33,654 bases of DNA from positions 1 to 33,654 of the forward strand of contig RBNJ01000302.1 in assembly GCA_003990765.1 (NCBI GenBank), in the 5' to 3' direction. This document shows positions 352 through 32,622 of this stretch, piece after piece. Position 1 is the stretch's first letter, and the number at the start of each line of letters is the position of its first letter. A program made the translations under genes and the position numbers. The notes beneath the pieces were generated by a model. The model saw only the letters and a program-made list of their open reading frames with translations. It ran no database searches and was not told where the DNA came from. The stretch is from Jimgerdemannia flammicorona (Eukaryota).

Positions 352-1727
352 GTAAGTGTCGTGTAATACATACATCTACTTTTGATTGGTTAGCGGACAG
401 CCTACTGCTTACTTTTTTCATTCATACAATTGGTGGTTAAAAAGAACATAACTCGGTTTCAAACCACTCTCTCAATCTTTCATTTCATTATCGTGTCTTG
501 CTCCCACCTTGTTCTTCATCACCTTCTGCAGCTCTCCACGGTAACATATTTGCCTTTTCATTTCGTTAACTCCACTTTACCTTTCGAAATCCAAACTAAA
601 TTTTTCTCCTTACTGCCATTTCATTTTAAACATTGCTCGTTCATTTCTAATCTTTGCCCATCCATCCATCACCCTTGACTATTTCAGGTACAATATTTCC
701 TTTTGCTTTATTATTTTTTTCCTAGAAAACCGTTACGATAGGCATTTTCCTTTTACTAATACTTGATCAAACTTACTTCTTCATCTACTCGCACACTATC
801 ACAGTGCCACTCAACGCCACTCCAGGTACATTTTCTTTCATTTTCTTTGGTTATTGTTGGATTTTCTGAAAGTACTCGAGGGTGTTATCTGTGCGCTTGG
901 AATGCTCTTTTCTCGGAGATCTTTGTCGATTCATTCGCGTTATTGCGGAACGACCTGAAAACCTCATTCCTGCATTCATACCTCCATCCGTCCACGTATT
1001 CATCCTTCCCGACATTCCCTTTCTACGTAAATCCCATGCCCCGATTATTTCAGGTATGATGTCTCTTTTGCTTTTTTACTCTTATTCCCATAAAATATTC
1101 CAATAAAATGCTCGAGTATATATATAGTAGATACGCTTGGAATAGTACAATTATAAGGATGTCTTGGTGTTTGATTTCCTTTTCATTTTACTTGCCAATT
1201 TTATTTCTTAACACGTTCTATCCAACCATTCCTGATTTGAACCTCGTTATCGCCAACAGCCTCCGTCGAAAGTACACATTTTAATATTTATGCCCTGCTT
1301 TCCACTTTCATTCATTGATTACCTAGTCTTACTCACACAAAGCTGTACGAGACTGATTTTCCACTGCCGAATGTTGCAAACCCTGACTGCCGGCGCTACC
1401 ATATTATTTATTAATTGGTTACCATTGTTCTTTCATTTTTATTTTTTCCATCAATTCTTCAACGAAACCATCGACCTGTTTTTCCTCACCGAAGTGCCTT
1501 CCGTTACCCAAGGTACGATCTCTTTCTTATGACTTCTGAGAACACTGGAATATTGACGTCGTTTCCAAAAAAAGAAAAAAAAAAATTGTATTAAATCGTT
1601 CGAAACTCTGCGCTACGCTGTTTCTAGCGTTTTGCTGTGTTTCCGGGAAAATATTAATGAGAAGAAATGATGTGGAAAGGCATAGACTTTCCTGCTCTAA
1701 TTTTCTTTCTTGCGCGATTATATTCAG

Positions 1728-2740
1728 ACAGGAGACCCTATCCCGATGAGACAGACGAGGGCCGAGACCAATTGATGGTGATACCAACCGAGCGGTTGGA
1801 ATATATCGAGAAATTCATAAGGAAACGACCCGTTACCCTTCTACGCAGCCCCCCGCTCTCGGGTAAGAGTACACTGGGCGTGACACTCCGGGACCGTTTC
1901 TTGGCTGGAAATTATGATGCTGTATACATATCTTTCGCGGGTTTGCCCCGTACGAATGCCCCTATCGAAGAGGATACCTTTGATAATTTCTGGAAGTACA
2001 AGGCTAAACGCACCTGGACGCAATGCCTTCGTTGTATAAAACCTACCATTGTCATTGTCGACGAGGCTCAGGCCCTCTACGGTAACAAAGCCATGTACTT
2101 TTGGGGAGACTTGAAGAATATTCACTCTGCAGACGGTCGCAACGATAAGCTTAGAGTGTTCCTGCTTGCTACCTACGACCCAGTGTGGAATGACAATTTG
2201 ACACCGTTACAATTTACGAACTCTCTTGGACTGAAGGATCTTCTTTTGTCGGAGTCAGATTTCGAAATCGTTGTGGAGTGGTTTGTTAACCTGCGAGATT
2301 CATGGGACAGTACGAACTTCAGCATCCCACAAGAGGTTGTCAAAACAATCTTCAACTTCACCGGCGGACACGCCGGTCTTTGTCGACATACGATTTTCAA
2401 AATGCGCGAAAAATTTCGCGACGGTGGCACAACAAAGGACATGCTTAAGTATCTCGTTTCTCGGAATTTTCTGCGATCTACAGAAGCCACACGCGCCTAT
2501 GAATGGGCCTCTAATTGGAATCCGACGAATGAAGAAGCCGAGTCTCTTCGCAATCTCCTTCTTCAAGATTACTCCGAACCTTTAGATCTTTCCGCTTCAG
2601 TTGCACAAAATTTCATCAAGTCAGGACTTCTTATCGTGGATTCCGATTATAATTACCATTTTGCCGCCCCCATCATGCGAACCTTTCTCACAAAGTCCTT
2701 GTTCAAAGCACGCGTAGACATTCGGAAGTCACCTTCGACG
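1728..2740 (+). CDS. CR-type (STAND/AAA+-like) P-loop NTPase exon
   Basis: ORF 1667..2770 with Walker A/B and GGHAGL motif; pyrimidine tract, CTAAT branch-like site and CAG before 1728. Confidence 0.85.
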
Positions 2741-3222
2741 AGTTCTTGTTGCGAACAATCGAACGCATGAGGCCGTCTGTCCTGAGGACGTCGTTAGGCC
2801 TAGGATCAGGCCCGGGTATGCGAATCCTCGAGAGAACTTGGCAAATGGAATGGTACCGCACGGCTCTCACCGTTGTCCCTGTCGGGGCCTCAGTTAGCCC
2901 GGACATTGGGAGCGTCTTTGGCTCTGACGGGTTCTTAGACTTCTATGTTAACGGCAAAGAGTACAGTTGGGGAGTCGAACTGCTCCGTGAGAGTGACCGA
3001 ATGAATGGACATGCCCGGATATTCGAGCCAGGCGGCGAATACAACAAAATTCCCCTTACAGATTATGTCATTATCGACTTCCGCCATGAGAACAAAACAG
3101 CTCAAACACCACTTCCTCACTTTTGGCATGCACTGTACACTGACGACTACGAACACATTACCATCCGGCGTTCCGGTGAAACGGATAAAGTCCTGATTTT
3201 GGGTGGTGATACGGAGATTTAA
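2734..3222 (+). CDS. C-terminal PD-(D/E)xK-like restriction-endonuclease-fold domain of the CR gene (out of frame with NTPase)
   Basis: FDEFLLRTIERM...ERTWQMEWYR...SPDIGSVFGSDGFLDFYVNG..WGVELLRE..H..IF..GGEY..IPL.DYVIIDFR, typical of NTPase-coupled CR-REase domains. Confidence 0.75.
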   Translation, partial: FDEFLLRTIERMRPSVLRTSLGLGSGPGMRILERTWQMEWYRTALTVVPVGASVSPDIGSVFGSDGFLDFYVNGKEYSWGVELLRESDRMNGHARIFEPGGEYNKIPLTDYVIIDFRHENKTAQTPLPHFWHALYTDDYEHITIRRSGETDKVLILGGDTEI

Positions 3223-3227
3223 TTTAC

Positions 3228-4213
3228 AATTGTTCAAGCCATTTCAATGACCATATGGTTAAATCGCTCAGCTACACCATTCTGCTGAGGTGTATAAGGA
3301 GCTGGTATTTGATGGAATATGCTGCATTTGCTCAGGAACTGCCTGAATGCATTGTTGATGTATTCGCATCCATTATCTGATTGTATAGTATGCACTCTAC
3401 ATTCTGTTTTATTCTTGGTGATTACTTTAAATTCTTTAAATTTGTCTAAGGCTTCACTCTTTACTAATAGGAAATATATATATACTTTATACATATATAT
3501 AATTATTGATGAATGTGATGAAATACTTCTTTCTAGAGTATGATGGCAAATGCATGGGGTCATATATATCAATATGGATAAGATTCAGAATCTCTGAGAT
3601 ATGCTTCAATTGTTCTTCAAATAGATGCTGAGATGCTTTATTTACTACACAATCCTCATAGAAGAAATTGTTTCCAAGGTGTATATTTGGTGGCAATCTG
3701 CTGACAGATTTATTCCTTATTATATATTTAAGGCTCATCTTGCTGATATATCCTAAGTATTAATTCTATATATTGGATATGTCTGGCATAGTTGTCATAT
3801 ATGCAGAGGCTTTCATACTATTCCTATTTGGTATACTATTGATTGTATAAAGATTGCAATATTTCAAAACAGTCAACTACTTATTGTCATATAATTCATA
3901 TACTATTGTACCCTTTACATATATGTATATATTCTTTATTATTATGTGAAATTATCTTCCCTATCAAAAAGAGGTTTTTGTCAATTTCTGATATCTAGGA
4001 AAGTGTTAGCAGGTTCTACAATATTACTATAGAGATGTATATATCTCAACATTTCTCTTTCTTGATTATATATGATATTGTTATCTCCTAGTTTGATAGA
4101 TACAGAGTACTCAAAAGGCTCATAAATAGAAAACCATTCTATATATAGTATCATATGTTATATGGCTCCTGAATTTATTAATCAGACATCATTTTTATTA
4201 GCTATATTAGTAT
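3228..4213 (-). mobile_element. Decayed Ty1/copia pol fragment (protease, GAG-pre-integrase, integrase core), 3'-truncated
   Basis: Minus-strand *LINSGAI*HM (WLIDSGA..HM protease) near 4155-4185; IHIDIYDPM; IQSDNGCEY...APYTPQQNGVAERFNH (integrase) in ORF 3234..3572. PR-IN order defines copia. Confidence 0.9.
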
Positions 4214-4225
4214 TATAACATGCCT

Positions 4226-4283
4226 GGCTCAATGGAGGCAAATTACAAGGTTGGGGGTTGATGTAGTTTGGCTTGAGCCCCCA
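4226..4283 (+). other. tRNA-acceptor-stem-like hairpin ending in C-CCA at the U5 end of the LTR (also 13146-13203, 30212-30269, 32634-32691)
   Basis: GGCTCAA(4226-32)/TTGAGCC(4273-79) stem, CAAATTACA/TGTAGTTTG inner stem with one G:U, 3' CCCA. Last 11 nt identical to the plus-strand PBS sequence at 13121-13131. Confidence 0.7.
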
Positions 4284-5302
4284 GTTACTTTGTCAAAAGC
4301 AACAAAATGTTCTATGATTCCTGAGGTCCTTGGTGGTGTTTAGTGGTATAATAGTCAAAGCTGGATATCTGTGGTCGATTTCCTTATTGGGACAGGTTCT
4401 CTGAGTGTAGCAGTGATTTGTGTGTGTGAACGGGTTTCCTTCTTGGGTCAACTGGGAATGGCAGAATTCGTGTATAGCGCGATGATCTCCTTGTGTGTGT
4501 GTGATGGTCTGGCAATTTAGCAGTTCTCCTTATATGATTTCTGCATGACAATCTCTGTGTAGCGCGGCAGGTTCCTTATGCGGGACGTTCTGATAATTTG
4601 GCGGATGACTCGATTCGGCTCTCCGGGAATAGAGAATGGTGTAGGTTCTTCCTGGGATGGTTTACTGGGAATTATACTGGCGGCGAGTTACTCAATAACT
4701 CGGGCTCACTGGGAACAACAGATAACTCGGATGGCACAGATTCTTCTGAATCGGCTTCAGAATCGGGCTCTTCTGGGAATGCGGATAACTTGAAAATGGC
4801 AGATGACGTGGATTCTTCTGAACTAGGATTCTTGGCAAGTTACATCAAAGACTGGCTTCGTTTGCATGGAGTTACATCGTAGACTGGCTCCACTGCAAAG
4901 TTGCATCAGAAAGACTGGCTTGTGGCAAGAATGGCAGCAAAAACTTGGGTTCTTCAGGCTTGTCTGGCAAGTGTACCAATAGCGCAGCTTATTCCTTAAG
5001 CAGCGGGTTTCTCTTCAAAAGGCAGTGAAGTTCTTCCTTGAACTTTGGCGGCAAATCTTCAGGCTTAGTCTGGCAAGTGTACCAATCAATCTTTGTATCA
5101 GAAAGTGGACTGGAGTGGAAAGGGGACCAATGCTCAATCTTTAGAGGCTTCTTTGGTGTTTGTATTTTGGACTGAGGTTTATTCACTCTTGTCTCTGGGG
5201 TAATTTATACAAGTTGGTTGCTATCTGATTACTATGTGGCTAACTATAGATTTGCTACTTCTGGTAATGCTTGGGTGTGTCCTCTGGGTACAGATATATC
5301 CA

Positions 5303-5397
5303 CAGGACATGAGTGTGCCCACATGACATGAGTGTGTCCACAGGACATGAGTGTGTCTGCAGGATATAAGTGTGTCTACAGGACATGAGTGTGTCCT
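5303..5397. repeat. 19-bp tandem repeat (CAGGACATGAGTGTGTCYR) in the U3 part of the LTR
   Basis: 5 units here, 3 at ~14281-14337, 4 in inverted orientation at ~31594-31670. Confidence 0.9.
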
Positions 5398-5563
5398 CAG
5401 GATACAGATAAACAATCCTGATCTGGTGTCTTGGCTAATTATAAGTGTGACAGACATGGGTAACTATGATACACTGGAAGTCACATCATGCTGAGTAAGT
5501 ATGCTAATTGTTCATATCATCTGGCTAAGTTATAATTCAGGTAGTATGTTTTGGTCTGTAACA

Positions 5564-5575
5564 TCAGCCCCCACT
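5564..5575 (-). promoter_or_regulatory. Short atypical polypurine tract (AGTGGGGGCTGA) abutting the 3' LTR
   Basis: G-run directly 5' of the 3' LTR on the element strand. Confidence 0.6.
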
Positions 5576-6112
5576 GAAGGGTAGTCTGTCTCAGACTATT
5601 CTTCAGTCATCATCCCAATAGGCATGAGCAGCTTCTGCATCTATACCTGTTCCATCATCATCATCTGAGCTACAGTCACTTCATTCCAGGGGCTCTTCTT
5701 CTTCCTCGGGAAATAGGATCTCTACTTGGTGAATAATGCTGAGGTAGGTGGGCAGTGTCATCCTTTGGAGGTCATTTAGAGAGAACTGGGCCTGGATTAA
5801 GGCAAAAGGGTTTTGTTTGTATATTGTGTATAGTCTGTCTGCAGCAGTAGTATTTCTGTTCAGGCCAGTGGTGTTTCAGATATAGGCTAGGTCTAAGAGA
5901 GGAAGATTCTGCAATTGTTCTCCAATTGCAAAATATGCCTGCAGCTGGTGGACCTGAAGTAGCCTCTTGGCCAAAGTGAGGTTCTCTTGATGAACTCAGA
6001 TTTTCTAAAGATATGTTCCATTGGGTTCCTAGAACTAAGACAGGGGAACTGATAGGGCTTGGAGGGAACTGAGGACAAGGGCTTAGAGGTGGTTGTCAAT
6101 TCTCTGATTCAT
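5564..6112 (-). pseudogene. Accessory ORF3 downstream of integrase (183 codons, unknown function)
   Basis: ATG at 6112 overlapping the pol end; one frame to TGA at the LTR border: MNQRIDNHL*ALVLSSLQ...QLQAYFAIGEQL...AADRLYTIYKQNPFALIQAQFSLNDLQRMT...EEEEE. Internal stops compatible with C-to-T. Confidence 0.65.
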
Positions 6113-7100
6113 GGTTTGAGAAGAGATATATCTTGAGGCAATTGATATATACTGGTGTTCTCAGGGTTTGTCCATCCATGCTTCTTAAATAGATACTGGT
6201 TCCTCTGATGTTGTGTACAAGATAAGGTCCTTCCCATTTGGGCTCCAATTTGGTAGCAAAGTTTGTTTCAATCATACTTCTCCAAACTAGTACTTGATCT
6301 TCAATCTTGATCTTCTGATCCTTCTGTCTTTGGTCATAGTACTTCTTTTGTCTTTCTTGGGCTTTGATAATCTGACCTTGGATCTGATTATGTAACTGTT
6401 CTGCCTTCTTGAGAAGATCTCTGAGATTCTCATGGTCAGCAGTTCTCATTTTCTTAGCAAACATCATTTCAAATGGCTTTTGTTTAGTTGAGGCAGCAGG
6501 GGTGTTCCGAATTTTCCATAGGATCTCAGGTAAGCAGAGGTCCCAATTGGTAGAATTGACTTGAGCAAGTTCTTTCTTGATGGTCTGGTTCATCCTTTCT
6601 GTCATGCCATTGGTCTGGGGATGGTATGATGTGGTCTGTTTGAGATGTATCTTGTGAATTCAAGCATAACTTGTAATTATGTTATTGATGAATTCTGTGC
6701 CTCAGTCAGAGATGAGTTCTTCTGGAGGTCTATATCTAAGTGTGAGTCTATGGAGAAGACCTACTATGGTTAGGGCATCAGCGATTTCCATTGGAAAAGC
6801 CTCAGGCCACTTGGTCAGATGTTCCACAAATACAAGGGTATATTTGTTTCTTCTTAGTATAACTGATAGAGGTCCAATTATATCTATTCCCCATCTTTGA
6901 AAGATGTGAGTGAGTGGGGGAATCAGTTGCAGAGAGACTTGATAGTTCTTTTTTCCTTGATACTTCAGGCAGATGTCACATTTCTGAATGATGTCTCAGA
7001 CTTGGGTTCTGAGGTGGGGCCAATGTTGATATTGTTTCGAATCTTGTCTTCTATGTATGTCTGTCCTTGGTGGGCTTTCTGATGTTCTTGTTGGATGAGA
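6096..7100 (-). pseudogene. Gypsy integrase (zinc finger, DDE core, GPY/F); no chromodomain seen
   Basis: HQKAHQG, PEELISD*GTEF, SYHPQTNGMTERMNQT, KLEPKWEGPY. Confidence 0.93.
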
Positions 7101-7199
7101 TCTTCTTGTTCCTTGATGGTCTGAGGAGCTTCCTTTAGGGTGTAGTTCCTCGGGACACCCTTCTTCTGGTTCATTGGAGCTGTTGGGAAAGTACTCAAC

Positions 7200-8460
7200 A
7201 TTGTTGTGAGCTTTCTCTGCTTTGTGAATAATGGTGATTTTGTAATTCTGAAGGATAAGGATCCAGTGGGCTAGGATTCCAGCAGGTTCCTTGTAGTTGA
7301 ATAGCTATTTGAAGGCTACATGGTCTGTGATCAGAGTGAACCTTTTTCTGATGAGGTAATGCTTGAACAGAGTGACCATCCATATGACTGCAAGACATTC
7401 CAGTTTGGTGCTACCATAGTTCATCTGCTGCTGGTTGATAGCTCTGCTTGCATAAGCTATCATATGGTACTATTGATCAGGTCCTTCTTGAGACAGAACT
7501 ATCCTGAGGCCATCTTTAGAAGCATCTATATACAAGATGAATGCCTTCTGTAGATTGGGGCACCCAAGGATAGGTGCTCTAGTCATGCAGTTCTTGAGTT
7601 CTCTGAAGGCTTTTTCCTGTGATTCTGTCTATTTGAATGGTGCTCCTTTCTTGAGAAGGATTCAGATTGGGGCAGTGATTTGGGTAAAATTCTTGATAAA
7701 CCTTCTATAGTAGGATACTAATATCAGGAATGATAGTGTTTCCTTTGGAGTCTTGGGTACTGGCCAATTGTTGATCTTCTCAGTTTTCTTTGGGTCTGCA
7801 TGAGTTCCTTCTTTTGAAACCATGAATCCTAGGAATTTGAGTTTCTGTTTCCCAAAGTAGTATTTTTTTGCATTCAATCTCAAGTAATTCTTGCAGGTGA
7901 GCTTGAAGAATTCCTCTAGGTGGTGCAAGTGTTCTTCAAAATTTGCTAAATAGATGTTGGAATCATCCATGTATACAATCAGGTAGTAGTAGATCAAGGG
8001 GGCATAGACTGAATTCATCATCCTCTGAAAGGTAGGGGGTGCATTGCAGAGTCCAAAGGGTATTTGGAGATATTCAAACAGTTTTTCTAGAGCAAGGAAG
8101 GCTGTCTTTTGAATGTCCTTAGGGTTCATGGGGATCTCATGGAATCCTGTAAAGAGGTCCATACTGCTGAAGTATCTGGCATCTTGTAACTGATCCAAGA
8201 GGTCATCGATTCTGGGCAGAGGATAGGCATCCTTTTCAGTGACTGAATTGAGTTTCCTGTAATCCATGCAGAGTCTCCATCCTCCTTTCTTTGGTACAAT
8301 AAGTATAGGGCTGGCCCAGGGGCTGGTAGAGGGTCGGATGACTCTATTGTCTAAGAGTCCTTGGATGTGCTCTTTTTCGAATATTTTCAAGTGATGGGGT
8401 ATTCTATAGGGTTTCTGCTAGATGGGTGTTGTATTTCCTGTATTTATGCTGTGGTGATAT
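7200..8460 (-). pseudogene. Gypsy reverse transcriptase and RNase H
   Basis: SPWASPILIVPKK..WRLCMDYRKLN, PFGLCNAPPTFQ, YMDD; RH FILYIDASKDG...IAYAS...NYGSTKLECLAV...LITDH. Confidence 0.97.
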
Positions 8461-8679
8461 GATGGATAGTATGGCAGATTGCCATAATTGGTAATAAAGA
8501 TATCTTGATATTTGTTGAGAAGTTCTACTAGTTGTTGTTGTTGAGGTGTCAATTCTTCAATATTGGTGGAAGGCTTCACTATCTCCTGGGTCGCAGAGGG
8601 GCCTTTCCTTTCTTCTGGGACCTTTTGCCATTTCCTGATAGGTTTAGTTCATAAACTTCCCTATGAGTTTGGTTGAGAA

Positions 8680-8960
8680 AAGGCACCAGATGTCCTATGA
8701 TGGTTCCTTTTGGTAAGATGATGGTCTCTCAACTTTGGTTGGTTGCTCGGGAGTGTACTGGGTTCATCTTGTCAGAGAATGTGTGTCCCTCTATGTCCAG
8801 GTGTAGGATATCTTTCTTAGGTTCGAAGAAATGGTTTCTGGGATCGGGTGGTGCAAAGATTTTGAAGATAGTTTGTTCTCCAGGCTCCAGGATGAGATTC
8901 TTGTACAGTCTGACTGGTTGCTGGTATACTTTCTGGGGAACATTCATCTTGAGGTGGTAG
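8680..8960 (-). pseudogene. Degenerate dUTPase-like domain between dUTPase and RT
   Basis: LILEPGEQTIF...ATNQS*ETIILPKGTIIGHLV parallels dUTPase I.PG..../N.S....I..G..IAQ.V but lacks catalytic motifs. Confidence 0.45.
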
Positions 8961-8987
8961 ACTTGAAGGAGATATACCTCCTTCCTT

Positions 8988-9400
8988 TCTGAACTTCCAA
9001 ATCCCTTGACTTGTCTTATTCCTTCAGTTAGTTCAGAGACTTCCTGTAACTGTGGGGTCTTGACCTTCATGAAGACTGCTTGGGCAATCTTCTGTCCTCT
9101 AATGATTCAGTACCATTCTGCACTACTGTTGTATAAGATAACCTTTATTTTGCTTATATATCCTGGGTCAATGGTTCCTCCTTCCACTATTATTCCTTGT
9201 CTGGCAAGTCCGGACCTTGAGGTCAGTTGGATATAAGCTCCTTGGGGTGGCTGCATGGCTAGTCTGGTTCTGACCATGAAGGTTTTTCCAGGCTTGATAG
9301 ATTTGTCCTCCAGGCTGTAAAGATCATATCCTACATCCTTGGGGTGGACTTTGGTCGGGGGTTTGGCCTTGGGGTGCAGCAGGGCATACTGGGCAATATT
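8988..9400 (-). pseudogene. dut: Trimeric-type dUTPase domain in the polyprotein
   Basis: All five motifs in one frame: VGYDLYS, SRSGLA, GGTIDPGY, GQKIAQAV, RQVKGFGSS; one internal stop. Mostly missed by the ORF track. Confidence 0.95.
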
Positions 9401-9719
9401 CTTGCTGAGTTCAGGTTTTTCTAAGACTGAAGCTCCACTAGCAGAAAGCCTTCAAGCTCTAAGGTTGAGGTGTAGACATCTGGCTCCAGTAGAGGAATCT
9501 TGGAGGTAGTTGATTTCCCTCCTTTCTGTAGAGTCAAGGGCTTCCATGAAGTTTGTGGCATCTTCTGCCTATCCTTGGCAGGTTGCATGTCTGATGAGAG
9601 CTAGGATGTCTTCTCCCAAATCATAGATCTTGAGGATTCTTTTCCTGGGCTTCTTGGTCTGGCTTTTTCGAATCTGGCTTTTTCAGATCTGGCTTTGGTC
9701 ATCTCCTTTCTTCAAAGTG

Positions 9720-10483
9720 TGCACTGCAACATCATGACTGAGGTGAATCTTCTAATGTCTGCAGTCTAGGCAGTCAGGGTGTCTTCTATGGTTGCAATAT
9801 TCCATTGCACAAAAATGATGTTCCCAGCTATTTATCTCTTGTTGTCTTGGGAATCAGTACCCATCTTGATCATAGGTTGGGGGAAGGGTAGACAAGGGAT
9901 ATATTTTTGTTTGGGTGAAGAAGCCTTGTCCTCTAAATCAACTTTGTAACCTTGTGGTGACTTCTTGAAAGGTGGTGGACTGTGCAAGAGTAGTTGGGGG
10001 TTCTGGTCTCTGGGGTCTCTATCTTTCTTGTTGGTCCAACAGATGACACTGATAGCAGTAGTCTCAGGGAGAGTGGAAGACCATTTGGTGTGGGCATCTT
10101 CCTAGCTGAAAAGCCTTTTCTTAGTGAGTTTCTTTCTTGAGAATAATGGTGATTGTACTGGGTCCTTCTTCTGTATTCCAAGGGTCATTGTCTTCAGGTG
10201 GTGTCCAGTAAGGGTCATTCCAGGAGATGAGTTCAGGGACCTCTTCTTCATCAGGTGCTTCTTGTTCAGGAACTTCTTGGTTGGAAGTTTCTTCTTCCTT
10301 GGATGATTCTTGACCCCAGATTGCTTGTACTTCTGCAGCTTCAGTTGTGGGTGTTTCTGGAATATGTCTGCATTTCTTCTTCTTCCTTCTGCACTCTGGG
10401 CAGGCTGTGCCTGGCAATTTCCTTGCTCCCATGATCTTGGAGGAGTGCTCAGGACACTTGTGTCTCTTGAGGCATGTAGGGTA
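9720..10483 (-). pseudogene. Cys/His-rich putative zinc-binding modules between protease and dUTPase
   Basis: In frame with gag-PR: YPTCLKRHKCPEH, ACPECRRKKKKCRH, CPHQMVFHSP*DYCYQC, HHFCAMEYCNHRRHPDCLDCRH. Confidence 0.55.
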
Positions 10484-10719
10484 TCCTTTGGCTTCTCCTG
10501 TGATAGCTCCAATGGTAATAGGGATAGTGTTCTTGGCCCACACATTATCTTCTGGTCAGTCATCCACCAGATTGATTTGGGGATTAAGTCTGTGATCATT
10601 TCCATCTTCAGATTCTTCCTCTTCTTCTGTGGTAGATTCTTCACTGCTGGCATACTCTTCCTGAATAGTGATCTTCTTCTTTTTCTTTGATTGCTCATAG
10701 CTGGTCACCTTAACTCTAT

Positions 10720-11060
10720 ACTTCTTGCCTCGATAATCAAACTTGAGTACTTGTTGGCCGATATCAACAACTGCATTCATTTCCTTCATCCAGTTGGTAC
10801 TAAGAATCATGTCATAGGTGACAGCTTCAGTGACAACAGCTTTGGAGATGGAGAACTGAATGTGTCCAAGAGAGATAGTGATATTTCATACTTCTCCAAG
10901 AAGTTGAGTTCAGGCTCCATCTGCTACTATGATGCTAAGGTTGGATGGTCCATCAATGGGCCATTGGAGGGTGTCCAAGAATTGTTTGGCAATGATACAG
11001 ACAGCTGCTTCTGTGTCTATGAGGATTTTCGCTTTTTGTCCTCTAATATCGCCATGTAAG
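10720..11060 (-). pseudogene. Retropepsin aspartic protease
   Basis: AKILIDTEAAVCII (DTG changed to DTE by G-to-A) and MILSTNWMKEMNAVVD (ILG.DW motif). Confidence 0.9.
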
Positions 11061-11669
11061 TAGGTGCTGACATATCTTTCGGCTGCTTGGACAGAGATAG
11101 AAGCTAGTTCTTGCTGTGGGATTGGAACTCAGCCAGTGCTAGACCTGGTGGTTCTCAGTAATTTGTTTCAGATCCCAGCTGGTATCAGTTGCAAGAACTG
11201 CAGGAGAGGGACTTCCATCTTAGCTTCTTGAATCTTCTGCTAGACTTCATTGTAAATGTCTCTAGACATAGTCTTTGGAGTGTACTTCTTCTTAGGTTTT
11301 GGAGCAGCAGGTTCCCATTCTTTTTGTTCCATTTTTTCATCTTTTGGTGGCAACTCATTTATCTCAGGAATATAAGGTAAAGGGGTTCAGGGAGGTGTTT
11401 CTACTTGTTCCTCCTCATGTTCTTCATCCTCTTCTTGGATAATTCTTCTGCTGATATTCCTGGATGGTCTTCCTATAGGTCTCTTTCTTTTTTCTGCTGG
11501 ATAGACTATTTTCTAGATTGTAACCTTAGTGGGGTACAAGTCTAGGTCACTGTAGTCTTCACTGTTACTTGCTTCTTCAAAATCTTCAACAGGATGGGCT
11601 TCAGTCTTCTTGTACTGAGTATCATTCCTTCAGTTCGGTGGTTCTGAGTCCCTTTGGTCACTTCTTTTG

Positions 11670-13132
11670 TTGTCACATTCAGTAGCATAGTGTCCAAATT
11701 ATCCACAGTAGAAGTATTGGACTTGGGCTCTATCTTGGACAGGGTACCTTCTTTTCTCTTACTGGTAATTCCTGTTATCTCTTGGTGGATAATCTTGGCT
11801 CCTCTGTGGTGGGTATCCTCTATTGTCTTGGTAGCCCCAATTTTCACATATGGTGAGTTTTTCAATCTGTCCAACCAATCAGTCTAACTTGGAGCTGAGG
11901 TCTTAGATTTCACTTCTGTCCTTCTTTCCTTTCTTGGCTGACCTTCTTTTCTTGGACCTTTCTTGTCCTTGAAGGAGTCCTTGCAGGGCTTTGACCAGGA
12001 TATCTTCTTTATCTTCCTTCTTGTCATGATCACTCCAGATAGTTCCTTGTCTGATATCAAAGAATCCTTGGGCTGCATCTACTTGCTCTTCAGACCCTCT
12101 GATGCCTAGGGTGCAGACATACTGGGCAATATTTGGGGGAATTCCATTTATGAAGGTCATTGGACCTATGATGTCTTGGTTGGTGGCATTGAACCCAGCA
12201 GAATGCATTCTCTTCTGGATTCTTGTAAAGAAGGCTCTGAGTGATTCTCCAAGATTCATCTTCATTCTCATGATGGATTTCTGAGCCTTATGGTAGGTTT
12301 CATTTCCTGCATACTTTTCAATTAGCCAGTAGACCATGGCCTCATATTATAGCTCATTGAACATTGCTGCTTGTATCTGTCTTGTTAGTTCTGAATCTCA
12401 GTTGTTTGCTATTCAATGGAAAATTCCTCTGACTGGTTCCCTGAGCTGAGGTTTGTAGATGGTAATTTTTCTTTCATCTGAGAGATTCCTTGAGGCTGCA
12501 ATTTCTTCAATCCCATCAAGGAATTCTCTGGGGTCTTCTTCTGGATATCCTGCAAAGGTTGGCAATGAGGTGGCCATTTAATCATCACTATCTTCTGATT
12601 CTGGTTCTGATTCTAGTTCTGATTCACTTTCTGAACTATCACTGGAGATGGGGGTGCTTGGGTATCTTGAAGATGGTGTTCTGGTCCTTGGATGGAGTGG
12701 AATAGGCCTAGATATTCTTGTAGGAGCTACTTCTGGTTCTGTAAGGAGTTGTGGTAGGGGTTCTATTGGTGAGATTGGTGGGACTAGTGTGGGGTATCTG
12801 GCTGTAAAGTATTGGGTCTGTGTGATAAGATCTTCAAGTTCTTGTGCAAGTTCTCCAAAATCTCTAGCAGGGCTGCATATATTGTCTGGTTGATCTGGTT
12901 GGGGATTTCGAGCTGTACTGCCTTCTGGTTCTGGTTGGGATCCTTCTGATGCTGGGTAATTGGCAAGTCTTGAAGTGATTACTTCTCTTCCTGTCCAGAT
13001 GCTGGTAATAACTGGTTCTCCTATAGTAGCAGAGGTTGGTGTTATATCAAATGTATCCAGTTTGACTGTGGGTTCTTGTGAGCTGAAAAGACATATTGAT
13101 TTAAAAAAAAATCTTCCCAGTTGAGCCCCCAA
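11670..13132 (-). pseudogene. Gag with Pro/Ser/acidic N-terminal extension, capsid region and CCHC knuckle
   Basis: ORFs 12578..13132 and 11903..12337 share a frame; MATSLPTFAGYPEEDPREFL at 12577; YFYCG*FGHYATEC (CX2CX4HX4C relic) at ~11675-11716. Confidence 0.85.
13115..13131 (-). promoter_or_regulatory. Primer-binding site complementary to a tRNA-Pro 3' end
   Basis: TGGGGGCTCAACTGGGA starts 2 nt after the 5' LTR; compare the MLV tRNA-Pro PBS TGGGGGCTCGTCCGGGAT. Confidence 0.85.
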
Positions 13133-13133
13133 A

Positions 13134-14492
13134 TGTAATGTGCCTGGCTCAATGGAGGCAAATTACAAGGTTGGGGATTGATGTAGTTTGGCTTGAGCCC
13201 CCAGTTACTTTGTCAAAAGCAACAAAATGTTCTATAATTCCTGAGGTCCTTGGTGGTGTTTAGTGGTATAATAGTCAAAGCTGGATATCTGCAGTTGATT
13301 TCCTTATTGGGATGGGTTCTCTGGGTGTAGCAGTGATTTGTGTGTGTGAATGGGTTTCCTTCTTGGGTCAACTGGGAATGGCAGAATTCGTGTATAGCGC
13401 GACAATCTCCTTGTATGTGTGTGACGGTCTGGCAATTTAGCAGTTCTCCTTATGCATTTTCTGCATGACAATCTCCGTGTAGCGTGGCGGGTTCCTTATG
13501 CAGGACATTCTGATAATTTGGCAGATGACTTGATTCGGCTCTCCGGGAATAGAGGATGGCGTAGGTTCTTCCTGGGACGGTTTACTGAGAATTATACTGG
13601 CAGCAAGTTACTCAATAACTCAGGCTCGCTGGGAACAACGGATAACTTGGATGGCGCAGATTCTTCTAAATCAGCTTCAACTGGGAATACTACTCGGATG
13701 GCATGAGTTATTCCGAATCAGGCTCTTCTGGGAATGCAGATAACTTGAAAACGGCAGATGACGCAGATTCTCCTAAATCGGTGGCTTCAACTGGGAATTA
13801 ACTAGGATTCTTGGCAAGTTACATCAAACACTGGCTTCGTTTGCATGGGGTTACATCATAGACTGGCTTCACTGCAAAGTTGCATCAGAAAGACTGGCTT
13901 GTGGCAAGAATGGTGGTGAAAACTTGAGTTCTTCAGGCTTATCTGGCAAGCGTACCAATAGCATGACTTATTCCTTAAGTGGCGGGTTTCTCTTCAAAAG
14001 GTGGCGAACTTCTTCCTTGACCTTGGTGGCAAATCTTCAGGCTTAGTCTGGCAAGTGTACCAATTAATCTTTGTATCAGAAAGTGGACCAGAGTGGAAAG
14101 GGGACCAATGCTCAATCTTTAGAGGCTTCTTTGGTGTTTGTATTTCAGACTGAGGTTTATTCACTCTTGTCTCTGGGGTAATTTATACAAGTTAGTTGCT
14201 ATCTGGTTACTATGTGGCAAACTATAGATTTGCTACTTCTGGTAATGCTTGGGTGTGTCCTCTGGATACAGGTGTGTCCACAGGACATAAGTGTGTCTGC
14301 AGAACATGAGTGAGTCTACAGGACATGAGTGTGTTCTCAGGATACAGATAAATAATCCTGATCTGGTGTCTTGGTATGGCAGGCATGGGTAACTATGATA
14401 CACTGGAAGTCACATCATGCTGAGTAAGTATGCTAATTGTTCACATCATCTGGCTAAGTTATAATTCAGGTGGTATGTTTTGGTCTGTTACA
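13134..14492 (-). repeat. 5' LTR (1359 bp)
   Basis: Plus strand TGTAATGTGCCTGGCTC...GGTCTGTTACA; adjacent to the PBS. Confidence 0.95.
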
Positions 14493-14496
14493 GTAT

Positions 14497-15866
14497 ATTC
14501 ATCAGATGTATAGCTAGGTATATTATTGGTACTTTTCATTAAGTTAAAAGTATTTTGCTGACCAGGATTCATAGATAATAAGTTTGGTAAATTTGGTAGT
14601 AGAACTGTGATCTATATATATTGCTTATACAAAGAATATATATACTATCACTATTATTAGTTTTGCTAGTATTTATATTGTAATACCTTTTTTTATCTCA
14701 ATAGTTCTTTCTGTTATCTCTATATTGTTAATACTAACTTCTATATTTACTTTTACTACTCTTCTTATTGTTTTTCCAGTAATAACAATTTTTGCTTTCT
14801 ATATTTATACTTGTTGTAATATATATATAACCCATTATACTTAGTTGTTTAGCTGCTATTATATTGTTGAGCTTGGGTTAAGTTTATTAGCATTATTGTT
14901 ATCTATACTTTTGATGTCATTTAGTACTATATCTATGAGACCTGCAGATATGTTTTCATTATTATTGATAATACCATTTTCTTGATATATTTTCTCATTT
15001 ATGAGGCTCATTATCATATGAGTATAATCTGTATATTTGCTACTTTCTTACATAGCTACTATTATGATATGATATACTTTAGAGGATTTCTTATAAGAGC
15101 CAGAACTTTGTCTTTATCTCTTATTCACTATGCTGACATTCTTAGAGAGTTTATCTGATTCATCAGATTATCAATATAACTGATATATTCATGAATGATC
15201 TTCTTAATATCATTTGTAGATTGAATAACTGAGATTTCAGAAAGAATTAATTTGATATAAATATTTGTATGTAATGATTACAAGTTAATATATATATTAT
15301 GAGCTTCATTGAGAGTTAATTAATATAAATACAATGTCTCATAATACTTGATAGTTATTTATAGCATTGTAATTTTGAATCAGTGCTTGTAATCTCATAT
15401 ATTCTATCAAGCCATATTTATTAAGAAGATTCATTATATAGAATACTTAGATCATATAATCTATCCTATTGAAGATTGAGATAGACCTCCTAGTTATATT
15501 TATACTTATAACTAAGACTGTATTTCCTATATCTATTGTAGTGGTTAAATCTATTATAGTAATAAAGACTATCATTATTAGAATACTCATAATTGGCATA
15601 TCTATTTTAATACTTTTATTATTAGATTAGTTATTACTTGATATTCTAGTATAGTATATATTAAAAGATGTATTTATTTGCTATAGCTACTTAGTTCCAG
15701 TGAGGCTTATAACATTTGTTATAAAGAGAGCAATTTTATTGAAGTTCTATAAGTTATATATTTTATGTATTACTAATATATGATATAAAATTAATAGAAT
15801 AGCATAATCACATATTGATATATGAAGTTGCTATTCTAATAGTTTAGAAAATATAATATTCCAATA
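14497..15866 (-). mobile_element. 5' part of the same decayed Ty1/copia: gag, PBS, probable short 5' LTR (~15717-15866)
   Basis: FNRIDYMI*VFYIMNLLNKYGL (copia gag N-terminus relic) near 15410-15475; GTTATAAGCCTC near 15702-15713 resembles the GGTTATGAGCCC internal-tRNA-iMet PBS; tentative LTR ends TATTGG...AACA. Confidence 0.7.
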
Positions 15867-16797: not shown

Positions 16798-17697
16798 AGC
16801 TATATAATAGAGAAGAGAAATATATGTCTTTAATGAGTATTATTGATCTTCATATTCACCAACTTTATATAAAAACTATATAATTAAAAGCCAACCTAAG
16901 AGACAAGATAGTATGGTCCAGAAGACAAGATAGTATAGTCTAATAGAGAAGTTGAAGATCACAGTCTTTGGTAAAGCCAGCAAAAGATAGTTCATAATCT
17001 TTCAGTATAAATTTTATATAATCTCATCACTAAGATTCACTAAATGGTATAATAGTCCTATATTAAAAGTAGTTGAAAAAAGTGCTTAGAATAATGCTTA
17101 TATAATAGAGGAGAGAAATAAATACCTTTAAAAAGTATCATTGGTCTTTATATTCACTAACTTTATATAAAAACCACATAATCAAGCATCTGCCTAAGAG
17201 ATAAGATAGTATAGCCTAGGAGATAGTTGAAGATCACAGTATTCAGTAAAGTTAGTAAAAGGTAATTCATAATCTTTTAGAGTAAATTTTGTATAATCTT
17301 ATCATTAAGATTCACTAATCTGTATAATAATTATAAGAAAAATAAAACAGTATTGGTATAAGTAGTAGTTGAGAGAGCAATGCTTAGATAATAGAGGAGA
17401 GAAATACATATCTTTAAAAAGTATTATTAGCTTTCATATTTACCAACTTTATAAGAAAAATACATAGTTGAGCACTAGTCTAAAGGATAAGATAGTATAT
17501 CTTAGGGGATGGTTGAAGATCACAGTCTTCTATAGAGCTAGTGAAAGCTGGTTTACCATCTTTCAGAGTAAATTTTATATAATCTCATCACTAAGATTCA
17601 CTAAACTGTATGATAGAAATAAGGAAAATATAATAGTAACTATATAGTAACTGTTCAGAAAAGGGCTTAAAGCTATATAATAGAGAAGAGAAATATA
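16798..17697. repeat. Degenerate tandem repeat, ~286-298 bp x3 plus start of a fourth
   Basis: Unit starts near 16801, 17099, 17385, 17674; shared blocks GTTGAAGATCACAGT and AAGATTCACTAA. Confidence 0.85.
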
Positions 17698-19627: not shown

Positions 19628-19703
19628 ATCTCGCTGGTCCAAGACAACGACGGCTGCTATCCTTGGGATGCGGCAGATGTGGGTTCAAATCCCACACGAG
19701 ATT
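19628..19703 (+). tRNA. tRNA-like cloverleaf (pseudo-tRNA or SINE head), identity unassignable
   Basis: ATCTCG/CGAGAT acceptor, GTC/GAC D stem, GCTGC/GCGGC stem with 12-nt loop, perfect T arm GTGGG-TTCAAAT-CCCAC; lacks D-loop GG and an adjacent oligo-T terminator. Confidence 0.55.
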
Positions 19704-30199: not shown

Positions 30200-30630
30200 T
30201 ATAATGTGCCTGGCTCAATGGAGGCAAATTACAAGGTTGGGGATTGATGTAGTTTGACTTGAGCCCCCAGTTACTTTGTCAAAAAGCAACAAAATATTCT
30301 ATGGTTCCTGAGGTCCTTGGTGTTTAGTGGTATAATAGTCAAAGGCAGGATATTTGTGAGCAATTTCCTTATTGGGATAGTTCTCTGGGTGTAGCAGCAA
30401 TTTGTGTGTGAATGAGTTTCCTTCTTGGGTCAACTGGGAATGCCACAATTTTGTGTAGGGAGGCAATTCCAAAAGTGTGCAATTTCTGGGTGACGGTCTG
30501 GCAATTTAGCAGTTCTCCTTCTTGGGTGATGGGCGATCTCTGTGTAGCATGACGATCTCCAAAAGTATGCAATTTCTGGCAGATAACTCGATTTGGCTCA
30601 CTAGGAATAGAGGATGGCACGGATTCTTCT
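30200..30630 (-). repeat. Truncated LTR (U5-end portion) of the dUTPase-gypsy family
   Basis: TATAATGTGCCTGGCTCAATGG... similar to the first ~430 bp of the LTR at 4214, then similarity stops. Confidence 0.9.
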
Positions 30631-31427
30631 TAGTATTTTTCAGTCTTATCTGATTTAGTTAGTACACCCTCTATACAAGTATGTTATAGTTTAGCCAAAT
30701 ATTGAATAGCCCTCCTATTACCTAAATATTCTTTGCTAGCAGCACAAAACAAGAGTATTCCAACCTTACTCTATTAGTATAGTCTTTACTACTGATGTAC
30801 TGCTACTGGTAAACCAATAGTATATCCAGACCTTACTACTAGGATATAGCAGAAATATGTTTAAATACCCTCAAAAACTAGAGTGAAAAAATCTCAGTTA
30901 GATAGTTTGAAGTAAAAAGGATTTACAGAGAAATATACTGCCTCTAAGAGTTAAGAGATTACTCTTGCTACCTTGGAAATTGATATAAAAATTATTATGA
31001 AACTTAAGATATAAACTGCTATCATTATGAAAATTGTCACAAAAAGATACAAGTCAATCAGTTAAGAAATACCACTATAGAAATTAGATATAAGATTTTA
31101 GACCATATAAAATTTGAGATACAAGATTGCTAACTTACCAGAAAACTTTGCTAAGAACATCAGGATAACTATCAGTATGTCAGAATCTATAACACATATA
31201 CTTTCACCTTCTGTACTTCTAAATGTCTAGTTATGTAACTAATGACTCATAATATGTAAACTTCAATGACATGCAAACTCCAACTTGATGTAAATAAGAA
31301 ATACAAATAAATCAAAGAGTAGTTGAACTTAACATTGAGCTAGAATATTATCAGATAAAAAGATAAACAATATAAAAGATAACTAAGTGAAATATTAAGT
31401 AGTATATTCTGCAAGCAGAATATATAT

Positions 31428-32622
31428 TGTAACAGACCAAAACATACTACCTGAATTATAACTTAGCCAGATGATGCGAACAATTAGCATACTTACTCAG
31501 CATGATGTGACTTCCAGTATATCATAGTTACTCATGCCTGCCACACTTATAATTAGCCAAGATACCAGATCAGGATTGTTTACTCATATCCTGCAGACAC
31601 ACTCATGTCCTGCAGACACACTCATGTCCTGTGGACACACTCATGTCCTGCAGACACACTCATGTCCTGTGGACACACCTGTACCCAGAGGACACACCCA
31701 AACATTACTGAAGATAGCAAATCTATAGTTAGCCACATAGTAACCAGATAGCAACCAACTTGTATAAATTACCCCAGAGATGAGAGTGAATAAAAAACCT
31801 CAGTCCGAATTGAAGTGCAAACCAAAGAAGCCTCTAAAGATTGAGCAATTGGTCCCCTTATTCTCACTCTGGTCTACTTTTCGATACAAAGAAGAGTTTG
31901 TTACGTTTTTGGTTCACTTACCAGATAAGCCTGAAGATTTGCCACCTAAGTTCAAGGAGAACTTTGCTGCCTTTTGAAGAACCTGCTGCTTAAAGGAATA
32001 AGCCATGCTATTGGTATGCTTGCCAGATAAGCCTGAAGAACCCTACCCTCCACCTTCTCAAGAAAGCTGCCTTGCTCAAGCCAGTTTCTGACGCAACTTC
32101 GCAGTGATCTGTTCATACAAACGAAGCCAGTCTTTGTGACGCAACTTTGCCAAGAGACCCTTTCCAAGCCACCATCCCATTTCCCAGAAGAATCCTGCCG
32201 ATTCAGGAAGAATCCGTGTCATCTGCCATTTTTGAGTTAGCCACATTTCCAGTCGAAGCCACTGATTCAGGAAGAATCCACGCCATCGTATTCCCAGTTG
32301 AAGCCACTGATTTAGAAGAATCTGCACCATCTGAGTTAATTCCCAGTTAAGCTGCCATTTTCAAGAAGCCCGCCGATTCAGGAGAATCTGTGTCATCCGC
32401 CATTTCCAAGTTATCTGCTATATTCCCAGTTAAAGCCAAAACCGCGATATCTGAGTTATTCATCATTCCCGGTGAGCCCAAGTTATCGAGTTATCTGCCA
32501 CCCGAGTTATTCCCTGAGAACCCCGCCATTTCAGGAAGAATCCATACCATACAATTCCCAGTGAGCCAAATCAAGTCATCCGCCAGAAATCGCATACTTT
32601 TGGAGATCATCGCGCTACATAG
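31428..32622 (+). repeat. LTR of the same family in opposite orientation, interrupted at 32622
   Basis: Starts TGTAACAGACCAAAACATAC, the reverse complement of the end at 14492; no PPT before it, so 5' or solo LTR. Confidence 0.92.

Follow-up and report, generated by a model that had tools for sequence, protein, structure and literature searches.

The element and its primer-binding site

The DNA analysed here, referred to below as the window, is a stretch of 33,654 nt from Jimgerdemannia flammicorona (contig RBNJ01000302.1 of assembly GCA_003990765.1). At positions 4214–14492 its minus strand carries a degraded full-length Ty3/gypsy retrotransposon of 10,279 nt, recognised by a pair of long terminal repeats (LTRs), a target duplication and Pfam domains. 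The subject of this report is a short motif close to the end of the unique 5′ (U5) region of these LTRs, which may take part in loading the primer tRNA onto the genomic RNA. The 5′ LTR (13134–14492, minus strand, 1359 nt) ends on its sense strand in GGCACATTACA, and the 3′ LTR (4214–5563, minus strand, 1350 nt) includes a second copy of the motif at 4226–4283. These two LTRs are 85.9% identical, LTR fragments match at 75.6–79.9%, and the copies differ from one another by indels. The LTRs have TG...CA ends, a 4-bp target duplication, GTAT, is found on both sides (4210–4213 and 14493–14496), and a primer-binding site (PBS) follows the 5′ LTR. In the interior (7662–9451, minus strand, with broken frames), Pfam detects a dUTPase (8729–9451, 63.4 bits) followed by a reverse transcriptase (RT; 7662–8417, RVT_1, 105 bits); two integrase matches downstream of the RT, at 18.1 and 24 bits, stay under the Pfam cut-off. 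The RT type, the domain order, the LTRs, the target duplication and the PBS identify the element as a member of the Ty3/gypsy group (Metaviridae). The RT has 3093 relatives at E≤0.001, on many of which the gypsy-type RNase H domains PF17917/PF17919 are found. The nearest relative, at 81% identity, comes from the Logan assemblies of public sequencing runs; close relatives lie on metagenome contigs of at most 2 kb, with the exception of one at 66% identity on a 5.3-kb contig, and a search of viral contigs with the RT protein gave no relatives. Fungal gypsy elements bearing a dUTPase have, in the accounts available, already been described.

The PBS occupies positions 13114–13131 of the minus strand, separated from the LTR by a TT spacer at 13132–13133, and reads TGGGGGCTCAACTGGGAA in the sense direction. 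At each of its 18 positions it complements the 3′ terminus, CCA included, of tRNA-Pro genes from metagenomes. An earlier model-made annotation, here called the sequence-only reading, had already recognised the site and pointed to tRNA-Pro, the length being one nucleotide above its count. It had also predicted from the PBS that the primer should start with GGCUCAA and, as is usual in eukaryotic tRNA-Pro, carry UGG at positions 8–10. Metagenome contigs were scanned with a pattern that combined the PBS-derived 3′ end (the 3′ 15 nt) with the universal T loop and left the 5′ end free. Eight loci were obtained, all with a tRNA-Pro-like 5′ part, GGCT(C/T)A(A/G)TGG; the predicted TGG at positions 8–10 is therefore present in 8/8, and three loci (L005, L001 and L007) start exactly with GGCTCAATGG. 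L005 is an intron-bearing tRNA-Pro(UGG) gene that scores 47.8 bits on the Rfam tRNA model (RF00005), and its tRNA, with CCA added, is complementary to the PBS at 18/18 positions. Among the five loci scanned with Rfam, L005, L003 and L008 passed the tRNA threshold, and L001 and L002, which have long insertions, failed it. In L001/L007 and in L002/L004/L006 a distance of 167 or 113 nt separates the tRNA-Pro-like 5′ part from the T loop downstream of it, which corresponds to long or multiple insertions. Since the metagenome loci match both the 3′ and the 5′ sequences, a natural tRNA-Pro with both ends as implied by the PBS does exist; this model tRNA is metagenomic and not the host's own. In a cofold of this tRNA with the element RNA exactly the 18 nt of the PBS are paired (−66.7 kcal/mol, as compared with −49.3 kcal/mol for the monomers), the 18-bp duplex itself being worth −37.5 kcal/mol. 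The same tRNA 3′ pattern found no locus in a collection of genome contigs. Plain scans for the PBS string hit 75 viral (15-mer) and 15 prokaryote-genome (18-mer) loci, which we regard as chance matches; within 200 nt upstream of these 90 loci a heptamer complementary to the PBS (anti-PBS) was present at two and a copy of the PBS at none.

The motif in U5 reproduces both ends of such a tRNA. Read on the plus strand, that is antisense to the element, positions 13146–13203 form a 58-nt hairpin, GGCTCAATGG...CAAATTACA-loop-TGTAGTTTG-GC-TTGAGCC-C-CCA, which lies 12 nt inside the LTR because the latter begins at 13134. Further copies are located at 4226–4283, 30212–30269 and 32634–32691, the last two with no PBS behind them. 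Exact occurrences of GGCTCAATGG in the window start only at the four hairpins (4226, 13146, 30212 and 32634); when one mismatch is allowed, eight matches including the four exact ones are found against 1.41 expected, a number reached in none of 100 shuffles. Similarly, there are five copies of TTGAGCCCCCA, four of them distributed one apiece over the four LTR copies and the fifth in the PBS at 13121; 0.39 are expected, and no shuffle out of 100 reaches five. The 16 stem pairs (15 Watson–Crick and one G·U) are intact on the plus strand in all four copies; the G·U becomes an A·C mismatch on the sense strand. On all these points, namely the position, length and sequence of the hairpin, stems preserved in spite of indels elsewhere in the LTRs, and an inner G·U restricted to the antisense strand, the sequence-only reading was accurate.

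Over the four copies, 3/58 columns vary within the hairpin, all three in its unpaired parts, as compared with 4/12 at the LTR tip, 2/30 at 13204–13233, 51/128 at 13234–13361, 99/190 at 13391–13580 and 155/347 in the deeper part of the LTR taken together. The comparison with flanking sequence that had been proposed as a check consequently has a divided outcome: the motif is conserved far beyond the LTR at large, yet no more than the adjoining 30 nt. Its two tRNA-related pieces, an 11-mer copied from the PBS and a 10-mer complementary to the tRNA 5′ end, show no variation in any of the four copies, while the LTRs are 76–86% alike. An exact run of at least 11 nt shared with the complement of the 75-nt tRNA-Pro appears in 1.3% of 300 LTR shuffles; the gapped local alignment score of the 11-mer, 22, can be set beside a shuffle mean of 19.4 (sd 2.0, maximum 27).

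The sense strand of the LTR contains about eight motifs resembling the 3′ end of tRNA-Pro, which the sequence-only reading had overlooked. Allowing two mismatches, ATTCCCAGTTGA is found 18 times in the window against 3.7 expected (reached in 0/100 shuffles); 16 of the matches lie in LTR copies, all in the LTR-sense orientation, one is the complement of the PBS and one falls outside the LTRs. About seven motifs of the form ATTCCCAGTTGA...GCC are spread over 13362–13802 (minus strand); their counterparts lie in the 3′ LTR as well as at 30430, 32245–32433 and 32828–33212. M7 (13362–13379, minus strand, AUUCCCAGUUGACCCAAG) is an anti-PBS motif that lies in an island found in 4/4 copies, with 5/29 columns varying; it can pair with PBS nt 8–18 at 11/11 positions and additionally offers CCCAA to UUGGG. 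M1–M6 (13540–13802, minus strand) are tandem modules of about 45–65 nt, each headed by such a motif, and their number varies among LTR copies. M1 (13780–13802) aligns to positions 52–74 of the 75-nt tRNA model, into the T loop and thus past the reach of the PBS, with a score of 29, the maximum in 300 shuffles being 27. The element within the U5 hairpin, CCATTGAGCC, may be an eighth, shortened copy of the motif, CC[C]A[G]TTGAGCC, in which case its CCA would be explained without recourse to tRNA positions 8–10. The motifs may have arisen by a template switch onto packaged tRNA or by insertion of a short interspersed nuclear element, and they may serve in PBS masking, in pairing of the 5′ and 3′ ends of the RNA, or as a protein site.

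Two predicted alternative pairings at the end of U5

In the last 70 nt of U5 together with the PBS we distinguish seven segments, a to g, all read on the minus strand, g being the PBS. Segment a (13193–13203) is a pseudo-PBS, UGGGGGCUCAA, an exact copy of PBS nt 1–11, in agreement with the 11 perfect base pairs to the PBS previously reported for its antisense form. Segment b (13182–13190) reads CAAACUACA and is the partner of d in the 58-nt hairpin, with the one pair that is A·C on the sense and G·U on the antisense strand. Segment c (13171–13177), (U/C)CCCCAA, has two possible partners, namely the spacer together with the first bases of the PBS and, once the PBS is taken, the UGGGGG of the pseudo-PBS. 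Segment d (13157–13167), UGUAAUUUGCC, is shared, being able to pair with b or with f. Segment e (13146–13155), CCAUUGAGCC, consists of the anti-PBS heptamer plus CCA and complements nt 1–10 of the L005 tRNA-Pro at 10/10 positions. Segment f (13134–13144), GGCACAUUACA, comprises the terminal 11 nt of the LTR. The 58-nt hairpin is the antisense image of the pairings a:e and b:d, which define an open form; in the closed form d is paired with f. In the open hairpin segment e would thus supply the 3′ strand of the basal stem, and in the closed one it would lie in the apical loop.

The first position of segment c, 13177, is polymorphic: the 5′ LTR has A (sense U, forming U·G with the PBS in the closed fold) and two of the four window copies have G (a C–G pair). 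Among the differences listed for soil-metagenome contigs, those that fall within 13134–13203 are this A>G change and a 1-nt deletion at 13145. In sequencing run X1, G was found at 13177 in 17 contigs, which account for 995/1007 of the summed contig depth. The summed depth of this run peaks at 13152–13253 and 14121–14222; contig depth cannot rank parts of a sequence, and the peaks were not used as evidence of conservation.

Predicted energies favour the closed form. On the sense strand, the 57 nt that span the LTR/PBS border fold into a hairpin of −21.0 kcal/mol (z −2.89; 2/200 shuffles as good), in which GGCACAUUACA is paired with UGUAAUUUGCC, CCCCAA with the spacer and the beginning of the PBS, while CCAUUGAGCC occupies the apical loop. 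In a 111-nt sense RNA the closed fold is the minimum, at −26.2 kcal/mol, and the enforced open fold, at −21.1 kcal/mol, is about 5 kcal/mol worse; pairing of segment e with the pseudo-PBS is accordingly confined to the less stable of the two folds. If the PBS is engaged, whether by constraint or by the tRNA in a cofold, CCCCAA takes UGGGGG of the pseudo-PBS as its partner in place of the PBS. In a 301-nt sense fold (−63.8 kcal/mol, z −1.75, 8/100 shuffles), M7 pairs with PBS nt 8–18 around the closed hairpin. As regards the 58-nt hairpin, its antisense RNA in isolation has it as the minimum-energy fold (−20.1 kcal/mol, z −1.89, 10/200 shuffles as good), as compared with −11.7 (z −1.67) when folded as DNA and −12.2 kcal/mol (z −0.40) for the sense complement, so that its folding energy, taken alone, is weak evidence. 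Once the PBS is included, the 58-nt hairpin is predicted not to be the minimum on either strand; on the antisense strand with the PBS complement it reaches −24.2 against a minimum of −29.8 kcal/mol, in which GGCUCAA is paired differently. The variation among copies adds to this picture. The variable sites 13135, 13139 and 13158, in d:f, remain G·U-paired on the sense strand in all copies and would be mismatched on the antisense strand; compensatory double changes are absent. Together with the restriction of variation in the 58-nt hairpin to unpaired positions, this pattern fits two alternative folds of one RNA, each of the two patterns alone being weak (p ~0.1).

In our interpretation, to which we would give an even chance, the motif is a PBS duplicate combined with an anti-PBS that resembles the primer activation signal (PAS) of HIV-1 (human immunodeficiency virus type 1), the two forming a cis-acting switch in the genomic (minus-strand) RNA that controls primer loading. 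In the closed ground state, d would pair with f and c with the spacer and the first PBS bases, so that the PBS is masked and CCAUUGAGCC is displayed in a 10-nt apical loop; M7, located 235 nt upstream, could at the same time cover PBS nt 8–18. In the open state, some 5 kcal/mol higher, a:e and b:d would form, which would free the end of the LTR and the entire PBS. Freed by this alternative fold or by arrival of the tRNA, the 18-nt PBS would anneal to the host tRNA-Pro. The pseudo-PBS would then take over the masking strand c and stabilise the freed state; by capturing this segment, the duplicate would act as an internal competitor that holds the PBS open. Finally, CCAUUGAGCC may catch the released 5′ strand of the tRNA in the manner of the HIV-1 PAS. 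Its 10/10 complementarity to nt 1–10 of the metagenome-derived L005 tRNA lies outside the 3′ 18 nt of the tRNA, as in the PAS, and the duplex is worth −16.6 kcal/mol. What has been observed or computed comprises the sequences, the complementarities, the fact that four diverged copies conserve them, a tRNA-Pro that matches and the energies of the predicted folds; from sequence, conservation and these energies we infer that the pairings may form in vivo and regulate priming. One of the two models offered by the sequence-only reading, a second PBS on the sense strand that forms a priming switch with CCAUUGAGCC, fits the data and is retained here in modified form.

Several points weigh against this interpretation. 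There is no covariation, the stems of the 58-nt hairpin being invariant, and the wobble argument for d:f concerns three sites only (p ~0.125 if transitions are neutral). Longer sense folds are ordinary in energy (z −0.08 for 116 nt and −1.75 for 301 nt). Since the adjoining 13204–13233 has no assigned role and is as conserved as the motif, the conservation may reflect U5 as a whole. M7 may or may not lie in the leader, depending on the transcription start and the poly(A) site, and the tRNA model was taken from a metagenome contig rather than from the host. The cofold does not choose the pairing of e with the tRNA 5′ end when the PBS is free; alongside the PBS pairing this contact would be pseudoknot-like, and 1-methylguanosine at tRNA position 9 would presumably block one of its pairs. 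Moreover, this copy of the element is dead, with broken frames and LTRs 86% alike.

Other explanations and related systems

The motif might, alternatively, be a functionless relic: the 11-mer would have been left from a duplication of the PBS, a downstream shift of the priming site or a captured tRNA, and the pairing would have arisen by chance among G- and C-rich pieces, with conservation stemming from a constraint on the U5 end such as strand transfer, packaging or integration. We regard this as unlikely. In its favour, the adjoining segment is equally conserved (2/30 as compared with 3/58 variable columns), the alignment score of the 11-mer falls within the shuffle range (22; mean 19.4, sd 2.0, maximum 27) and the folding z-scores of the 58-nt hairpin are modest. 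Copies of this kind would, moreover, arise easily in this LTR family, because the LTR is full of other tRNA-Pro-like pieces, and according to Kojima (2024, PMC10886601), as far as that account goes, ‘not a few’ Repbase LTRs are partly similar to tRNAs. Such a relic would, however, have to contain both an exact PBS 11-mer and, separated from it by 37 nt and in register for a hairpin, a 10-mer exactly complementary to the 5′ end of the tRNA, the pair being at most 72 nt from the PBS. Both pieces would also have remained unchanged in four copies whose LTRs differ by 14–24%, and an exact run of at least 11 nt is seen in only 1.3% of shuffles. Should the pairings prove not to be real, the case would stand as a caution that PBS- or tRNA-derived debris in LTRs can look designed.

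A second alternative, which appears rather improbable, is that U5 docks the tRNA by strand exchange. The basal U5 helix has the sequence of the tRNA-Pro acceptor stem, and its 5′ UGGG overhang complements the CCCA-3′ tail of the tRNA. The pseudo-PBS would take the 3′ strand of the tRNA (11 bp) and CCAUUGAGCC its 5′ strand (10 bp), 21 bp in total at no net cost, so that the tRNA would be recruited and its acceptor stem opened before the 3′ end is handed on to the PBS, which lies 72 nt farther downstream. If the PBS is blocked, exactly this complex is the lowest-energy cofold (−57.9 as compared with −40.5 kcal/mol for the monomers), which lies at −8.6 kcal/mol relative to free closed RNA plus free tRNA, and its two duplexes, −21.2 and −16.6 kcal/mol, together match the −37.5 kcal/mol of the 18-bp PBS duplex. 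The order of a and e gives a nested topology for both acceptor strands, whereas e followed by the PBS gives a crossing one; the 10/10 match with the tRNA 5′ end is likewise what a dock would call for. Yet the result is purely thermodynamic and a consequence of the complementarity itself. The complex is 8.8 kcal/mol worse than annealing to the PBS, priming at the pseudo-PBS would yield strong-stop DNA without the LTR end, no route of hand-over to the PBS is evident and the search of literature largely outside subscription journals gave no precedent. If the docking model were nevertheless true, the sense-strand copies of the tRNA 3′ end in the LTR would be part of that system too, where they would mask the PBS or bring about circularisation of the RNA.

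Similarly improbable, and placed by us slightly lower, is self-priming of the Tf1 type, in which M7, at or near the 5′ end of the transcript, would fold onto the PBS and be cut by RNase H to yield the primer, the hairpin at the end of U5 then being a structure akin to the U5 inverted repeat (U5-IR), which self-primed elements of this type require. This would make use of the 11/11 pairing of M7 with PBS nt 8–18, together with CCCAA:UUGGG, and of the conservation of the M7 island in 4/4 copies (5/29 columns varying), and self-priming is reported in the fungal Ty3/gypsy lineages Tf1, Tj1 and Tcn1 (PMC4600332, PMC6317226 and PMC2864245). However, a self-primed element needs no perfect 18-nt complement to a tRNA 3′ end including CCA, and M7 mispairs PBS nt 1–7, exactly where the 3′ end of the primer must sit. 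Furthermore, an upstream TATA-like candidate, TATACA, reads TACACA in 2/4 copies. Segment e was considered as a self-primer in its own right and discarded, because cleavage at that point would leave a template of no more than about 18 nt. That the pseudo-PBS serves 3′ tRNA fragments as a target or decoy is likewise unlikely, the part that would give seed pairing to the 5′ end of such a fragment apparently being missing.

The other model of the sequence-only reading, an antisense transcript from which a CCA-ended minihelix of about 58 nt is processed to serve as self-encoded primer, decoy or PBS blocker, is very improbable, even though the isolated antisense hairpin is its own minimum-energy fold (−20.1 kcal/mol), one G·U pair forms on that strand only and the 3′ 11 nt are complementary to the PBS: the Rfam tRNA profile finds no match on either strand of 13050–14550 even at E≤10, no A or B box of RNA polymerase III (pol III) was seen by eye and no terminator-like run of at least four T follows within 60 nt of the hairpin, the promoter would in the case of the 5′ LTR have to lie in the gag leader, the fold loses to another antisense structure when the PBS complement is included (−24.2 against −29.8 kcal/mol), only 11/18 PBS positions would be paired by such a primer, and the single antisense-only G·U is offset by the three sense-only paired variable sites of the competing hairpin. 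The encoded CCA suggests a copy of the PBS or of a mature tRNA rather than of a tRNA gene.

The choice of a tRNA, its opening and its placement on the PBS are understood in detail for no more than a few retroviruses and yeast elements, which use extra contacts and masked motifs. The cis-acting switch, if true, would represent a different solution, in which a PBS duplicate and a complement of the 5′ acceptor strand form a helix identical to the acceptor stem. The observation belongs with extended primer–template signals and U5–PBS structures. The retroviral (Rous sarcoma virus, RSV) U5-IR and U5-leader stems and the stem-loop of Tf1, which is U5-IR-like, combine an inverted repeat at the extreme end of U5 with a stem that crosses the U5/PBS border, the two enclosing the start of the PBS. 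The predicted closed hairpin has this layout, which would make these stems the closest structural analogue; it differs from them in that its apical loop would show a 10-nt complement of the primer 5′ end and that a competing upstream hairpin reuses one of its strands. The closest functional analogue would be the HIV-1 PAS, which, as described in the sources at hand, is located in U5, contacts another part of the primer by base pairing and stays hidden by pairing within the template until required (Ooms et al. 2007, PMC1865047; the review PMC8473020; Beerens and Berkhout). Like segment e, it is in these accounts a short U5 motif upstream of the PBS, complementary to a second part of the tRNA and identical in sequence to the displaced tRNA strand, and changes in the motif are needed for a switch of primer. 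[quoted passage not shown]

Contacts between tRNA and template outside the PBS are reported for RSV, feline immunodeficiency virus, Ty1 and Ty3 (PMC5371799); in Ty3, freed tRNA 5′ ends function in dimerisation, and Gypsy has a second tRNA-binding site (PMC5371799, PMC1635307). According to these texts, additional or second tRNA sites are common among retrotransposons, as seen in Ty1, Ty3 and Gypsy, and the present element would share with them a primer tRNA that contacts the template beyond the canonical PBS (PMC5371799, PMC1635307). Their sites, in contrast, bind the T and D arms or are located in the unique 3′ (U3) region at the 3′ end of the genome, and no PBS duplicate in U5 or complement of tRNA nt 1–10 is described there. 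As in HIV-1's tRNA-like element (Jones et al. 2013, 2014, in PMC8473020), the genome strand mimics its own primer tRNA beside the PBS, which in HIV-1 aids loading; that element, however, is summarised in the review as a mimic of the anticodon arm acting via lysyl-tRNA synthetase, whereas here the acceptor stem plus CCA is reproduced and base pairing, if anything, would be involved. tRNA-derived sequence within LTRs, fungi included, is also known from Helenus, Cassandra and Ajax (Kojima 2024, PMC10886601). Helenus elements are presented there as short non-autonomous terminal-repeat retrotransposons in miniature with conserved pol III A and B boxes, the tRNA-like part of their LTRs not being complementary to the PBS (PMC10886601). 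Unlike these and TRIMp3 as so described, the present element, at 10.3 kb, is of autonomous size and has pol domains, the pieces in its LTR derive from the primer tRNA and correspond to the PBS, and the LTR is matched by no tRNA model. The sense strand of its LTR is strewn with pieces of its own primer tRNA, in contrast to Helenus LTRs. Tf1, Tj1 and Tcn1, for their part, resemble it in having upstream LTR sequence complementary to the PBS (here M7, M1–M6 and segment e), although their PBSs, according to the same sources, match the 5′ end of their own transcript, whereas a full 18-nt tRNA-Pro site is present here (PMC4600332, PMC6317226, PMC2864245). A search of full-text literature, with subscription journals largely outside it, gave no report of a PBS duplicate in U5 paired with a complement of the tRNA 5′ acceptor strand. 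The statement of the sequence-only reading that no equivalent had been described was nevertheless too strong, since related concepts are found in the PAS and tRNA-like element of HIV-1, in the U5-IR and U5-leader stems, in the extended or bipartite PBSs of Ty1, Ty3 and Gypsy and in the Helenus LTRs. If the pairings are real, they would provide a compact, testable model for RNA-only control of primer loading, together with a signature that can be searched for in other LTR families, namely a PBS copy and its inverted complement within about 100 nt of the end of U5.

Further features of the element and the window

Directly upstream of the 3′ LTR, at the position of the polypurine tract (5564–5575, minus strand), the sequence reads AGTGGGGGCTGA, purine only in part. 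It contains TGGGGGCT, which is also found at the start of the PBS; G-runs are usual at this position, and the likeness is for this reason judged to be due to chance. Near the outer (U3) end of both LTRs there are tandem repeats with a period of 19 nt (5272–5453 and 14250–14374). The region 30200–33654 holds a cluster of LTR pieces of the same family, two truncated copies and one inverted fragment (31422–32338), which suggests nested or rearranged insertions.

The flanks of the element are AT-rich, and a very AT-rich stretch (GC 26–28%) contains tandem repeats with a period of about 286 nt at 16801–17638. The sole tRNA gene of the window, for tRNA-Ser (GCT), lies at 19628–19703 on the plus strand, at a distance of about 5 kb from the element; insertion close to pol III genes is known for some gypsy elements. 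As for the occurrence of the window in public sequencing runs, four soil-metagenome runs are listed, two of them with part of the stretch (shares 0.14 and 0.06), and no RNA run is among those listed. Finally, an open reading frame of 369 aa at 1661–2770 (plus strand) has STAND/AAA-type NTPases as its nearest Atlas clusters, its Pfam match being a sub-threshold one to KTI12.

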